Assembly: GCA_021792955.1 (NCBI GenBank)
Contig: JAJYTP010000002.1
Span: 43,575 to 107,574, forward strand
From: an archaeon
Lineage (GTDB): Archaea > Thermoproteota > Nitrososphaeria > Conexivisphaerales > UBA164
Reading direction: 5' to 3'
DNA length: 64,000 nucleotides
The translations under genes were made by a program, and so were the position numbers. Below the pieces are notes generated by a model. That model was not told where the DNA came from. It saw only the letters and a list, made by a program, of their open reading frames with translations, and did not search any database. Positions within the stretch are counted from its first letter, which is position 1; each line of letters starts with the position of its first letter. This document shows positions 2,911 to 33,542 of this stretch, piece by piece.

Positions 2911-3037
2911 TTCTGGAGCCTAAATATTAAGAAATCATTTGTACTACGTAGATCTTATTTGACAATAAAATAGACGAATACGGGGGATGCAATTGCTATT
3001 AACGCATCATTAAATTGCTATGAGACGATCGCAGAAA

Positions 3038-3116
3038 GACATCCTCCAACGTTCAAGCGCGTGAGCTTCCTGTGGGGCTATCCCGCTTGCGGGTTCGTCA
3101 ACCAGCAGGGAACTCC
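3038..3116 (-). mobile_element. Orphan IS200/IS605-type right end / TnpB omegaRNA-like scaffold, copy A
   Basis: Minus strand GGAGTTCCCTGCTGGTTGACGAACCCGCAAGCGGGATAGCCCCACAGGAAGCTCACGCGCTTGAACGTTGGAGGATGTC; homologous to 22701-22776; ends like the GAAGCNCACG...CGTGGGAGGATGTCAC right ends recalled for this family. Confidence 0.65.
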
Positions 3117-3341
3117 TTTCCCGATTTGGCAACACACGACTAACATCAGCCTGATGAAGCTAGTTTTATCTGCACCGGTATGAATTCTTGCATAGCCATC
3201 ATTTGCATATTATCATCTTAAATAACATTTGAACAAAGTAACCGTTGTTGGAGGAAGCCCATATATATTTTCTTAGCTAAAGCATGAGCAGACACGATAA
3301 ACGACGGTGCGTCTAAATATAAAAAGAATATAAATTAAGGA

Positions 3342-22252: not shown

Positions 22253-22612
22253 TTAACCATACACAGGAAGGTCCATAGGTGATGATTTAGTCCCCTTGCT
22301 CTTAATTATTTTCCTTTCAAAATAAACTAGAAGGGATATTGTAACCACTTCAAGTAAAAATATAACGTAAAGGAAATAGTTTCCTAGAAATATAATGCCT
22401 GCTAGCAAATATATTAATGAAATGCCATTTAAAAAATAGGACGCCATACGAGGGCCAAGGTCCAATAGATGAAGGGTTCCAATGGCCAATATGAAAATGA
22501 AAAAGGCCAAGCTTAGATAAGGAGAGGCCAACCCAATGGAAAGGATGAACATGATGAGGTAAGCTACAGAAATTACAATATGAAACGTCCCGATAAGGAG
22601 GTTGGATTTCAT
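22253..22612 (-). CDS. Hypothetical four-TM membrane protein
   Basis: Four hydrophobic segments; C-terminal PMDLPVYG. Confidence 0.7.
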   Translation of the reverse strand: MKSNLLIGTFHIVISVAYLIMFILSIGLASPYLSLAFFIFILAIGTLHLLDLGPRMASYFLNGISLIYLLAGIIFLGNYFLYVIFLLEVVTISLLVYFERKIIKSKGTKSSPMDLPVYG

Positions 22613-22700
22613 TTGCGAATAAAGCCTTGGGCGGTTCCATTTAACTATTTCTAAAAAATTGATTTAATGAAGTGTTTAATAATGAATATTTCTTACACCA

Positions 22701-22776
22701 AGTTCCCATGTAGCCGACGAACCTCATGAGGGATACTGGCATGAAGCTCACGAGCTTTAGCGTGAGAGGATGCCAC
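22701..22776 (+). mobile_element. Orphan IS200/IS605-type right end / TnpB omegaRNA-like scaffold, copy B
   Basis: AGTTCCCATGTAGCCGACGAACCTCATGAGGGATACTGGCATGAAGCTCACGAGCTTTAGCGTGAGAGGATGCCAC; terminal CTCACG/CGTGAG hairpin; homologous to copy A. Confidence 0.68.
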
Positions 22777-22854
22777 ATGGTAAAACTTTACCGGAAGAAG
22801 TAGATAATTCAATATGTCGAAAGGTTTAAAGGGATCGATTGTGCATTTAAATAA

Positions 22855-23409
22855 ATGGTTAAGCTGGAATATGAGGACTCCTTCGTCAAAGCCGCTGGCA
22901 TGCTGGGAGGAGAGGAATATGTACGCGTCGCTCGAGCCCTTCTTAATAATGTAGACGCCACCGATGAGGAAATAGCTAGCGCTACGGGTCTTAAAATAAA
23001 TATAGTGAGGAGAGTGCTTTATGCGCTCTTTGAAAGGTCACTTATAATAGGTATAAGGTTTAAGGACCCTAAAAAGGGCTGGTACGTATATAGATGGAAG
23101 GCGCAATCTGATGCAGTGGATACATTCCTGATGCGGGAGAGGAGAACCGTGCTTCAGAAGCTGACCGAAAGGCTGGAATATGAAAAATCAAACAGTTTTT
23201 ATTATTGCGGCACACCTACCTGCAAGAAGAGAACGTTTGAAGAATCAATGATGGACCTCTTTAAGTGTCCAGAGTGCGGTAATACGCTTACACCATACGA
23301 TAACTCAGAATTGATCAAGGCGATCGAGTGGAAGATAAATCAGATAAACGAAGAAATGGAACAGAAAAAAAGGGAGACGGAGAAGCCGATAGCGCCAAAG
23401 GAAAAGTAA
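22855..23409 (+). CDS. tfe: Transcription factor E alpha
   Basis: TDEEIA...INIVRRVLY, GWYVYRW, LEYEK..FYYC, FKCPECG..L..YDN. Confidence 0.95.
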   Translation: MVKLEYEDSFVKAAGMLGGEEYVRVARALLNNVDATDEEIASATGLKINIVRRVLYALFERSLIIGIRFKDPKKGWYVYRWKAQSDAVDTFLMRERRTVLQKLTERLEYEKSNSFYYCGTPTCKKRTFEESMMDLFKCPECGNTLTPYDNSELIKAIEWKINQINEEMEQKKRETEKPIAPKEK

Positions 23410-24909: not shown

Positions 24910-27900
24910 ATGTCGGCTCCTATCGCTTTTCTCACTCAGAAGATAAGTGAACAGTCAAAGGAGATAACGGATCTTAAGGGAGGCTTCCTGTTAGGAGCTG
25001 GCTATGATGGAGACAAGAAGTTGGCCTACCTTAAATTCTTGGATACTGTTTCACAGTCCATCTGTTATTATTATGATAATTCAGGCCATAGGCCCTATTG
25101 TTATAGCAAAAAGACGCCATCTGAGCTTCAGCAACTATTAAAGAGGCCGGATGTAATTGCCATAAGGAAGGAAGAGAAACTCGAACCTATAAGTGACCAG
25201 AAGATCGAGGTATCAAAGATAATCACTTCAGACCCGTTAGCCATTGGCGGTTCACCCAACAGTCTAAGGAATATCGAGGACTGCTATGAAGCCGATATCA
25301 AATATTATGAAAATTACCTCTATGATCTGGGGCTCATTGCCTGTACATATTATGACCTAGAAAAGGGCGTCATAAGTAAGTCAACGATCAGCTACACGGA
25401 GGATATGTCATCCGTGTTGCAGGGGGTGATAGGCTCTCAGGACGCGTCTATGGCCAAGTACACGAGAGACTGGGCATTCATCCTTGCCCAACCGTTCCCC
25501 TATATAAAAAGGGCCGCGATAGACATCGAAGTATTTGCTGAAGCCGAAAATAGATTGCCGGACCCCGAAAAGGCAGAACAGCCCATTATAAGCATCTCCG
25601 TTGTGGGAAATGATGGCCAGCGAAAGGCCTTCGTACTTAGGAGGACGGATGTGGAACCCGGTGATGACAAGCTGCCGGAAGGGGCAGATCTAATTTACTA
25701 TGATGATGAACTCCAGCTGCTGCTCGACTTCTTCAAAAAGATGCTTGAATATCCGGTAATAGTGACATTCAACGGTGACGGCTTTGATCTTCCATACCTG
25801 TACCATCGAGCGCAGAATCTGAATGTGCCTAAGGAAGCTATTCCGATCAGCATCGGTAAGGAGGTCGCATCCCTTAAACATGGAATACATGTTGACCTGT
25901 ATAAAACATTCATAAATAGATCGATTCAGGGTTACGCCTTTTCTAACAAGTATTCTGAGCATACTCTTGACGCCATTAGCCAGGCCATCCTAGGCGAAGG
26001 AAAGGAACCGGTTGTAGACAGCATAAATACCATGACGACTACCAAGCTAGCCGTATACAATTTGCAGGATTCAAACATAACCTTGGGGCTGACCACTTTC
26101 AATGATGATCTATTGTTCAAGCTCCTAATGACCATATCAAGGGTCGCTAAGATGCCGATCGAAGATACATCCAGGCTAAGCGTTTCCAATTGGATCAGGA
26201 GCATGCTTATCTTCGAGCACAGAGCTAGGAAAGCGCTGGTGCCCAAGAGGGAGGAAATAGCCGCCAAAGGTAATGCTGGCTCCACGGCGATAATCAAAGG
26301 CAAGAAATATCAGGGAGGATTCGTTGTAGAGCCGAAACCCGGCGTTCACTTCCAAGTAGTAGTTCTGGACTTTGCCTCCCTGTATCCTAGCATCATTAAG
26401 GTCTATAACCTAAGTTATGAAACTGTAAAGTGCCCACACCCAGAGTGCAGGGATAACATACTTCCTAATACAAATCTATGGGTCTGCAAAATAAACAAGG
26501 GTATGATTTCCCTCCTGATAGGCTCCTTGAGAGATATAAGGGTGAACTATTTTAAATCCCTTGCAAGGATAGCCGTAAACAAGGAACAAAAGCAATTTTA
26601 CAACGTTATATCCCAATCACTAAAGGTTATACTCAATGCGTCATATGGGGTGATGGGGTTCGAAAGCTTCCCCTTCTACAGTTTGCCGGTAGCAGATTCG
26701 ACTACTGCATTGGGGAGATATTCCATTCAGAGCGCTATAACAAAGGCTCAGGAACTGGGGAGTGAGGTGATATACGGCGATAGCATAGCCGGTGACTCAA
26801 TTGTGGTAGTAGCAACTGAAGGCGAGCAATCCGGTGTTTTACCCTCGCCAGCTGTTGAACGAAAGATGAAGGTTGAGGACCTGTTTAAGAGGGTCGATAT
26901 AACCGGTGACGGGGGGAAGGAGTATTATCTGCCCGAGCATCTCTTTGTAGAATCACTGGATCAAAATAAAATGGTGACGTTTGCGAAGGTCGTCAGTATA
27001 ATGCGTCACCGAACCGCTAAAGACATGTACAGAATACGGGTGGATGGGCATAACATAGACGTTACAGAGGATCATTCGCTCATTTCGCTTTCGGAATCCG
27101 ACAGTCCGCAATTTTCACCTATCAGACCACTGGATATCAAGAAAGGAACGCTGCTTGTAACGAGATCGAACACGACGAACGAAGTTAACGCTGGCAGTGG
27201 AACAAAGATCAGTATCTTATCGGCAGGCTATCATTTGGCGCACGCGTCAAGCATCGAGAAGCTGGCTGGCTATCAAGGCTACGTCTATGATCTGGAAGTG
27301 GAAGGTAATCACCGTTTCTTCGCGAACTCCGTGTTAGTCCATAATACTGATAGCCTCTTTCTAAAAAATGCTTCCTCTATGCAAATCAAGGAAATCGAAA
27401 GATGGGCCAAGGAAAAGCTCGAAATAGATCTGGAGATAGACAAAAGGTACCGGTTTGTGGCGTTCAGTCAGAGGAAAAAGAACTATTTGGGTGTTTATGA
27501 AGATGGTTCCGTAGAGGTAAAGGGACTTTCCGGGAAGAAATCACATACTCCGGAATACATCAAAGAGGCCTTCTATAGCGTACTGGATACGCTTGGTAAG
27601 GTCAAGACGGAGGGTGATTTTGTTGAAGCAAAGGAAGAAATAAGGAAGAAGATACGTGAAGCATATTTGATGATAAATGAAAGGAAGGTGCCACTTGAAA
27701 AGTTAGCCTTTAAGGTCATGCTCAACAAGCCCGTTGACAAGTATACAGTAAGCACGCCGCAGCATGTCAAGGCGGCTCAACTGCTCATAGAAAATGGCAG
27801 TGAAATCAAGGCAGGCGATGTCATTTCATATATAAAGACTGTGACCCCGTCTGGAGTAAAGCCGCTATCCCTGACAAAGAAGGAAGATATAGATACCGGC

Positions 27901-28008
27901 AAATACATCGAGTTCCTTGAGAGCACGTTCGAACAGCTGCTGGATGCTTTAGGGTACAACTTCGATCAGATAATAGGTTCATCTAGAATCGAAGATTTTT
28001 TTGGCTAA
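24910..28008 (+). CDS. polB: Family B DNA polymerase (PolB1 type) containing an intein
   Basis: YDNSGHRPY N-terminus, DIEV and TFNGDGFD exonuclease motifs, DFASLYPS, KVILNASYG, YGD/TDS split by an insertion, KKNY. Confidence 0.96.
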   Translation: MSAPIAFLTQKISEQSKEITDLKGGFLLGAGYDGDKKLAYLKFLDTVSQSICYYYDNSGHRPYCYSKKTPSELQQLLKRPDVIAIRKEEKLEPISDQKIEVSKIITSDPLAIGGSPNSLRNIEDCYEADIKYYENYLYDLGLIACTYYDLEKGVISKSTISYTEDMSSVLQGVIGSQDASMAKYTRDWAFILAQPFPYIKRAAIDIEVFAEAENRLPDPEKAEQPIISISVVGNDGQRKAFVLRRTDVEPGDDKLPEGADLIYYDDELQLLLDFFKKMLEYPVIVTFNGDGFDLPYLYHRAQNLNVPKEAIPISIGKEVASLKHGIHVDLYKTFINRSIQGYAFSNKYSEHTLDAISQAILGEGKEPVVDSINTMTTTKLAVYNLQDSNITLGLTTFNDDLLFKLLMTISRVAKMPIEDTSRLSVSNWIRSMLIFEHRARKALVPKREEIAAKGNAGSTAIIKGKKYQGGFVVEPKPGVHFQVVVLDFASLYPSIIKVYNLSYETVKCPHPECRDNILPNTNLWVCKINKGMISLLIGSLRDIRVNYFKSLARIAVNKEQKQFYNVISQSLKVILNASYGVMGFESFPFYSLPVADSTTALGRYSIQSAITKAQELGSEVIYGDSIAGDSIVVVATEGEQSGVLPSPAVERKMKVEDLFKRVDITGDGGKEYYLPEHLFVESLDQNKMVTFAKVVSIMRHRTAKDMYRIRVDGHNIDVTEDHSLISLSESDSPQFSPIRPLDIKKGTLLVTRSNTTNEVNAGSGTKISILSAGYHLAHASSIEKLAGYQGYVYDLEVEGNHRFFANSVLVHNTDSLFLKNASSMQIKEIERWAKEKLEIDLEIDKRYRFVAFSQRKKNYLGVYEDGSVEVKGLSGKKSHTPEYIKEAFYSVLDTLGKVKTEGDFVEAKEEIRKKIREAYLMINERKVPLEKLAFKVMLNKPVDKYTVSTPQHVKAAQLLIENGSEIKAGDVISYIKTVTPSGVKPLSLTKKEDIDTGKYIEFLESTFEQLLDALGYNFDQIIGSSRIEDFFG
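26782..27345 (+). mobile_element. Mini-intein (188 aa) in the PolB YGD|TDS motif
   Basis: Starts SIAGDS, block B VTEDHSL, block F VYDLEVEGNHRFFAN, ends VHN before T; no LAGLIDADG motifs seen. Confidence 0.95.
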
Positions 28009-32272: not shown

Positions 32273-32698
32273 GTGTCCTCGGATTCAAATTCAGGTACTA
32301 TAAAGATCAGGGTTAGGAACGGCGAAAATGAGTTTGAAATAGATGCCAAAAAGGTGGATCTTCAAGACGCGTTTAAGACCGCAAGTGATATATTCCAGCT
32401 GATTGGGAAAACACCTACTGTCGTTAGCCCCACGATTGAATCCAGTTTCGATACACCAATCCAGATAGATTCAAAGGCGTCGCTTCCAAACATAGTGGTA
32501 AAGCTTCTTGGGAGCGAATGGGGAAGCAAGCCCAGAAGGCTAAAGGAAATCAAAGAGCAACTTGAGCAGATGGGTATGATATATCCAAAACAGTCAATCG
32601 CCGTATCCCTTTTACGTCTTGCTAAGGAAGGTGAAATAAGGAGATTTAAGGGAGATGAGGGTGATTACCTTTACGTAGGCGCGCGTAAGGGCAACTGA
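32273..32698 (+). CDS. Winged-helix protein with N-terminal beta-hairpin/helix domain
   Basis: PRRLKEIKEQLEQMG..YPKQSIAVSLLRLAKEGEIRR...YLY. Confidence 0.75.
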   Translation: MSSDSNSGTIKIRVRNGENEFEIDAKKVDLQDAFKTASDIFQLIGKTPTVVSPTIESSFDTPIQIDSKASLPNIVVKLLGSEWGSKPRRLKEIKEQLEQMGMIYPKQSIAVSLLRLAKEGEIRRFKGDEGDYLYVGARKGN

Positions 32699-33044
32699 GA
32701 TTACTGAAAAGATGTTGGGGGGTTTCGTTATAAGCTGAACTCTGATGCCTTAACTGAGAAAATATACGCGGGCTTCCTTCAACGACGGTTACGGCGTTCA
32801 AATGTCATTTATGATAATAATATATTGAGCCGGTCGCGTCCGATTTCATACCTGTGAAAATACACCCGGCGAAGCAACGTACTGATGTCTGTCATGTACC
32901 GCTAAATCATGAAACAACTTCCCTGCAGGTTTATGAGCCAGCAAGGGTGATGCCTTTATAAAAGACTCGCACCCTTGAACGTAAGAGAATATGCCGGTAA
33001 AACTATAATATGGGGATAATATATAGCAATAGCGTTAGATTGAC

Positions 33045-33542
33045 ATGAGCGAAGAACCATTGAACGTAGAAATTCGCATGGGGGATTTACACGCAACTTT
33101 TTCAGGGAAGCCAAGCGATGTTTATGAAACTGTTGATCGATTCCTTTCTCAAAACATATCTGAAATCGGTTTCGCGAGACAGATATACCTTAATTACAGC
33201 CTTAAAGAACTGGTTGAAATGTTCACGGGATTTGTGAAAATAACCGAGGAAGGCCCGCGGGTAATATCTGAAAGGCCCTTAAGCTTAAAGTTGAAGATAA
33301 GCCTTCAACTTATAGCGTGTAAGATTGCGTTTATGCTCAATCGCATCCAGAGGGCTGGATACTCTGTACAGGAGTTGGAGGAGTCCATGGCGACCAACGC
33401 AAAATCCATCAGTTCTAGGCTTAGTGAATTGGTCAAGGAAGGGTATGTAATGAGAAGCAACGACGAAAAGGGAAGTTCATATTATGTAACCACTGCCGGC
33501 ATTAAGTGGGTCTTCGACACTCTGCACAGCGCGCTAAAATGA
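33045..33542 (+). CDS. Winged-helix protein with N-terminal beta-hairpin/helix domain
   Basis: SVQELEE...KSISSRLSELVKEGYV...YYVTTAG. Confidence 0.8.
   Translation: MSEEPLNVEIRMGDLHATFSGKPSDVYETVDRFLSQNISEIGFARQIYLNYSLKELVEMFTGFVKITEEGPRVISERPLSLKLKISLQLIACKIAFMLNRIQRAGYSVQELEESMATNAKSISSRLSELVKEGYVMRSNDEKGSSYYVTTAGIKWVFDTLHSALK

Follow-up and report, generated by a model that had tools for sequence, protein, structure and literature searches.

A structured repeat upstream of tfe

The window, the 64,000-nt stretch of archaeal DNA analysed here as a whole, belongs to a MAG of 1.17 Mb in 70 contigs that is 73% complete (G000). Within it, tfe (22855..23409, plus strand), which encodes a TFIIE alpha homologue (Pfam PF02002, E 2.3e-18), is preceded by a divergently oriented hydrophobic ORF of 119 aa (22253..22612, minus strand) that matches no Pfam family. 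The spacer between the two genes harbours, on the plus strand, a TATA-like AT-rich string, TTTAATAAT (22675..22683), so called from its sequence, followed about 20 nt further on by a 78-nt segment (22699..22776; copy B) that ends 78 nt before the tfe start. Directly 3′ of copy B lies the flank ATGGTAAAACTTTACCGGAA (22777..22796). Both this flank and the TATA-like string stand where the earlier note on this DNA had placed them, and the string is present in all three available genomes of the genus (G000, G001 and G002), with one change in G001. Downstream of tfe, an ORF of 1032 aa (24910-28008, plus strand) encodes a family-B DNA polymerase with what appears by eye to be an intein-like insert (..GDSIAGDS...VLVHNTDS..).

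Copy B carries the blocks AGTTCCC (22701-22707) and GACGAACC (22716-22723), and pairwise alignment with a related segment on the minus strand (copy A; 3114..3036) recovers the further common blocks GGGATA, GAAGCTCACG and GAGGATG. All of the shared blocks that the earlier note had listed are thus present at copy B, the spacing of 19.6 kb that it gave between the two segments is correct, and both copies are free of tnpB, as it had said. The window has exactly two occurrences of the combination AGTTCCC-N8-GACGAACC, against 0.07 expected, and two or more were found in one of 100 shuffles.

Three helices can be placed on copy B. The outermost, P1 (22705..22743), in which CCCATGTAGC pairs with ..CTGGCATG around a short P2, is degraded: four Watson-Crick and two G-U pairs are left, as compared with 10 bp in the family. 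P2, placed by family pair counts, joins CCT (22722-24) to GGG (22730-32), and P3 is a perfect CTCACG/CGTGAG hairpin (22747-22752 with 22761-22766) closing an 8-nt loop. The pairings proposed earlier therefore hold for the outer CATG/CATG (22707-10 with 22740-43) and for the terminal hairpin, but not for the inner CCTC..GAGG, which would leave a loop of 2 nt. Pairing CCU with GGG around a 5-nt loop gives a better drawing of that hairpin, and copies A and B then differ there by a change from G-C to G-U and not by a double change. Folded alone, copy B reaches −27.8 kcal mol−1 (z −2.61; two of 200 shuffles equally good), and copy A is no more stable than its shuffles (z 0.01; 90 of 200 as good). 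In a search of the whole window against Rfam at the gathering threshold only three tRNAs pass, and relaxing the limit to E values up to 10 around copies A and B yields only spurious eukaryotic families.

A TnpB element right end and its relics

The origin of the segment is revealed by a locus of another genome of the same order (L019 in G025), where a TnpB frame (PF07282, E 2.3e-18; PF01385, E 8e-18) has its stop codon just 5′ of AAGTTCCC; the 78-nt core follows and runs to GGATGCCAC, beyond which the sequence is unrelated. The extension upstream of the core in this locus is the C-terminal coding region of TnpB, and remnants of the same coding region are found upstream of the core in sister copies. 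As the core of L019 lies between the tnpB stop and the end of the element, it is the right end of an IS200/IS605-family element, and the description of copy B in the earlier note as omegaRNA-like is borne out to the extent that it is homologous to the sequence from TnpB stop codon to transposon right end.

TnpB elements of the IS200/IS605 family, among them the ISDra2 and ISGst families, carry an omegaRNA (reRNA) scaffold. Established knowledge of TnpB elements places the guide-proximal part of this scaffold in the stretch from the tnpB stop to the right end (Meers et al., PMC10055086). The present family is alike in that its core runs from 3′ of tnpB to the right boundary with a covarying structure, and in that conservation ends at this boundary (...GAGGATGYCAC), where 3′ flanks that differ among copies take the guide position; ATGGTAAAACTTTACCGGAA occupies the position that a guide would have in an intact element. 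Copy B differs in being the last 78 nt only, an incomplete scaffold that ends in the terminus ...GAGGATGCCAC: positions 159-239 of a 240-position family profile are matched (nhmmer, E 5e-19), the score against the family covariance model (R1) is 72 bits, and tnpB remnant, left end and upstream scaffold are all missing. Since homology is not detectable upstream of 22699, copy B is classed not as a PATE but as a remnant consisting solely of the right end of an IS200/IS605-family (TnpB) element. That it might be a mini-MITE in decay, its left end lying near 22661, was rejected, as only eight of the 17 positions of 22661-22677 match by eye.

Copies A and B, taken by the earlier note as a pair, are members of a much larger set: 24 copies were found in the MAG of the window by BLAST and the profile, a third one within the window among them. 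About 11 of the 24 matches begin no later than profile position 25 and extend at least to position 235. The 5′ starts of the others are scattered (positions 108, 143, 145, 159, 164, 169, 191 and 194), the pattern expected of random decay, and two of the 24 are without the 3′ end. By the covariance model, 22, 25, 30, 20 and 21 copies were counted in G000, G002, G001, G009 and G004, respectively, the last four being other members of the same family, and matches occur in 13 of the order's 36 genomes. Approximately half of the copies share about 160 nt of further common sequence upstream of the core, and some, including copy A, extend to a left-end region (GATGTTGGGGG...), which makes them gene-less elements of about 260-285 nt.

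Copy A in its full extent (3036-~3295, minus strand; profile positions 4-238, E 1.3e-57) is a MITE/PATE-like derivative of about 260 nt, composed of left-end region, a remnant of the tnpB 3′-coding region and right end, with no TnpB ORF. About 25 nt of its left-end terminus (GACGTTGGGTGACC...) are gone (window 3270-3316, minus strand) and are kept by its orthologues in G001 and G002 (L016 and L017), so that copy A is probably immobile in the window genome. The third copy (32711..32995, plus strand; profile positions 4-235, E 3.8e-34), likewise gene-less and MITE/PATE-like, is about 285 nt long, has the left end GATGTTGGGGGG..., a tnpB 3′ remnant and a degraded P3 hairpin, and sits between the ORFs at 32273-32698 and 33045-33542. 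Copy A is syntenic in the other genomes of the genus (L016/L041 and L017), and a further copy, c3, located 3.3 kb before the window (G000:C13:40068-40301), is syntenic as well, following a shared 286-aa ORF in all three genomes (L024 and L026); these relics are thus older than the divergence of the three species.

IS605 derivatives of PATE type, without genes but with omegaRNAs, are described by Meers et al. (PMC10055086), and solo ends of IS200/IS605 elements are likewise known. Copy A and the third copy resemble PATE/MITE-like elements in lacking genes, in their length of about 260-285 nt and in having both left- and right-end regions, and the many copies in the three genomes of the genus are a further likeness. 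Both ends are found in the third copy and in the orthologues of copy A, copy A itself having lost a part of its left terminus. A search with the left-end motif that allowed two mismatches returned 36 matches, mostly due to chance. Other genera of the family contain, at several sites, very small derivatives of about 70 nt (L034, L043, L044, L022 and L038, in G013, G009 and G008), in which about 18 nt of left end (..GGGATGTTAGGGGTTT) are fused to the final ~50 nt of right-end sequence (GGGGGATAGCGGCATGGGAAGCTCACG...GATGTCAC); these may be minimal mobile units.

Family structure and divergence of copy B

TnpB-linked and B-type copies served for drawing the three-helix structure (P1, 10 bp; P2, 4 bp; P3, 6 bp) by hand, and its pairs were counted on an alignment of 24 copies from eight genomes. 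Of 472 cells, 78.6% are paired, versus 33.6-52.1% when the 3′ partners are slid by one to three columns, a comparison in which the unslid register is favoured by alignment and structure having been derived by hand from the same sequences that were counted. In P3, 92.4% of the cells are paired among the 24 sequences. Changes on both sides were seen in nine of the 20 pairs, and the covariation score of 0.220 (0.065-0.101 when slid) was reached by none of 500 shuffles; the covariation noticed by the earlier note is therefore real at the level of the family. RNAalifold applied to the first nine copies returned only a weak consensus of eight pairs. Many of the single-sided changes yield G-U pairs, consistent with an RNA read in the sense orientation of tnpB, and the family structure presumably functions as an omegaRNA and not solely as an end of single-stranded DNA.

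Two subfamilies are distinguishable, an A-type (CCCTGCTGG...CCCCACAGG) and a B-type (CCCATGCTGC...GCGGCATGGG). Each has longer or TnpB-linked members, which indicates that the differences between copies A and B were inherited. The alternative that the earlier note had kept in reserve, that its covariation descends from two different parent IS elements, is thus the one favoured here, copies A and B falling into the two different subfamilies. For genome scans this carries a caution: pair-preserving differences between dispersed copies can be inherited from structured parents, and are then no proof that the copies themselves are under selection.

Copy B is located upstream of tfe in all three loci of the genus; the 12 tfe loci that were examined from three further genera are all without it. 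Between G000 and G002, 66 of 76 aligned positions of copy B are identical (86.8%), with three further gap columns, as against 79 of 88 and 70 of 78 (~90%) in the flanking spacers and ~95% in the neighbouring genes. At four-fold sites of four neighbouring genes, 391 of 459 (85.2%) are identical, so copy B diverges at the neutral rate (Fisher P value=0.86). Moreover, different helices are damaged in different lineages: CTCAAG breaks P3 in G002, P3 being intact in G000 and G001, and in these two genomes a GG that completes P1 in G002 is lost and two more P1 mismatches are found. Divergence slower than neutral with helices kept was not seen at copy B over the 76 aligned sites of three genomes, a sample of low power in which weak constraint on a part, such as P3 (intact in two of three), may still act. 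The part of the spacer that is best conserved in the three-genome alignment is the 40 nt adjoining tfe, not copy B.

In contigs of at least 80% likeness from four other metagenome runs, the same three haplotypes (G000, G001 and G002) were recovered. Stray ends that stem from other copies of the terminal ~33 nt were also present, and none of the contigs spanned an empty site. The earlier note had set neutral decay together with absence from relatives and lack of expression as what would refute its proposal; just half of this picture was found, copies A and B being present and syntenic in same-genus relatives. Another genus likewise has sequences resembling IS605-type right ends ahead of tfe, roughly 90-300 nt upstream, in each of its three tfe loci (L055, L057 and L058, in G009, G007 and G011, respectively). 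Their subfamilies differ from that of copy B; one is accompanied by a tnpB 3′ fragment that points to tfe and one is inverted. A preferred site of insertion may be the explanation, or else chance in genomes rich in IS elements.

Partner proteins, flanks and alternative readings

A single TnpB was found in the MAG, a 418-aa protein of another lineage on contig C16. It was rejected as the cognate protein, its 3′ region not aligning with the element, and the covariance model has no match on this contig among the matches listed. Searches of G000 for a cognate TnpB gave only fragments of up to 71 aa by tblastn and nothing at E 1e-20 or better by protein search. G002 has an open cognate TnpB frame of 368 aa at a contig end whose zinc-finger motif is degenerate and which, relative to L019, has an internal deletion. 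A Y1 TnpA is encoded on contig C68 of the MAG, and its element was rejected as the parent because its right end differs and is GC-rich. A scan of public genome contigs gave seven loci, the best of which are cut by contig ends, and the cognate frames found by an order-wide protein search are also cut or degenerate; a complete copy of this exact lineage with left end, tnpB and right end was seen in neither the public contigs nor the order-wide proteins. As the MAG is 73% complete and repeats break assemblies, an intact cognate TnpB could lie in its unassembled sequence.

For the 20-nt flank of copy B, which the earlier note had taken for a possible spacer, second matches in the genome do not exceed 14 nt (the best being 13 of 14), and the collection of viral contigs that was searched contains no exact 18-mer match. 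A loose right-end pattern finds 21 sites in the genome, several of them chance matches; at 20 of the 21, the 20-nt flank has no second genome match longer than 16 nt, and at the remaining site, one of the chance type, the flank has a match of 16 of 17.

Copy B is very probably an ordinary, neutrally decaying right-end relic of an IS200/IS605 element in a lineage rich in IS relics, and it probably has no present function. In intact relatives, the stretch corresponding to copy B is bounded by the tnpB stop codon on one side and the right boundary of the transposon on the other, and its tnpB-sense strand folds into P1 (10 bp), P2 (3-4 bp) and a 6-bp P3, which would form the 3′ portion of the omegaRNA scaffold that adjoins the guide. 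A TnpB-encoding element would have inserted upstream of tfe in the ancestor of the genus and subsequently lost its left end, tnpB and the upstream two-thirds of its scaffold, leaving 78 nt that have since drifted at the neutral rate.

Against this stands the proposal of the earlier note that copy B and the other tnpB-less copies are orphan guide RNAs that act in trans, with TnpB supplied from elsewhere and the target set by the 3′ flank. The family structure is real, 3′ flanks do differ between copies, a TnpB (C16) and a Y1 TnpA (C68) are encoded in the MAG and an open cognate frame in G002, and use in trans of PATE-borne omegaRNAs has already been proposed in the Discussion of Meers et al. 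(PMC10055086). However, copy B lacks the ~160 upstream profile positions that are conserved in other gene-less copies, and it drifts neutrally with changes that break helices; the sole TnpB of the assembly is of a lineage whose 3′ region is unalignable to the element, the G002 frame is damaged, and the flank has neither a longer second match in the genome nor an exact viral one. The proposal is therefore judged very unlikely, and the dispersed guide-RNA set of an undescribed system, for which neither an intact cognate TnpB in this assembly nor a second genomic or viral match of the putative spacer was found, gives way to one of about two dozen truncated, neutrally drifting relics. Were the copies nevertheless expressed and used in trans, they would form a natural distributed set of guide RNAs without CRISPR; nothing found here points that way. 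A narrower version, in which the genus keeps its approximately two dozen fragments because some still give rise to RNAs that a TnpB-family protein (an unassembled cognate or the product of the G002 frame) takes up in trans, is a very long shot; if it held, short 3′ scaffolds such as copy B would be minimal guides or decoys that titrate the nuclease, and an RNA-guided protein would be placed beside the promoter of a general transcription factor gene, tfe.

It is also quite improbable that copy B has been co-opted in cis in the spacer of tfe and its divergent neighbour, as a promoter-proximal structure, an alternative start further upstream from which tfe would gain a structured leader, or an insulator between the divergent promoters. 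Such a role would suit its place 78 nt before the tfe start codon, kept in three of three genomes of the genus, the TATA-like string about 20 nt upstream and the occurrence of other IS605-type right ends upstream of tfe in three of three loci of another genus. Those insertions, however, differ in subfamily and orientation, which fits repeated chance insertion in IS-rich genomes, and the tfe loci of nine genomes from two other genera are without such an element and have a different upstream gene; within the spacer itself, conservation is highest in the 40 nt beside tfe, and the divergence of copy B is that expected of neutral sequence. Neither this reading nor the one in trans gains support from anything found here. 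That the similarity of copies A and B is due to chance, or to a generic structured motif unrelated to transposons, can be taken as refuted: neither copy matches Rfam, but the profile E value and covariance-model score of copy B, the direct continuity of the core with the TnpB gene in L019 and the tnpB-coding remnants upstream in sister copies all speak against it.

Read as a right-end relic, copy B can also be set beside TldR, the TnpB-derived RNA-guided transcription factors whose guides are aimed at nearby promoters. It shares with these systems a TnpB-type scaffold beside a promoter region, and differs from them in having no adjacent TnpB-like gene, in drifting neutrally and in that its 'guide' is the flank of an insertion. 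Among the papers listed by a literature search none deals with orphan omegaRNA sets; in one TldR preprint, 'orphan' refers to oppA genes.

The inventory of mobile elements in acid-mine Nitrososphaeria is extended by an apparently uncatalogued TnpB lineage with no sequence match in Rfam, as well as by MITE/PATE-like and solo-end derivatives of the same lineage, and covariance model R1 with its three-helix structure is provided for the guide-proximal part of the omegaRNA of this lineage. A repeat of another kind, unrelated to the element, occupies G000:C59:1-600, where six units with ..GGGTTGTTAGGGTTTAACG.. form a tandem array of 102-nt period.
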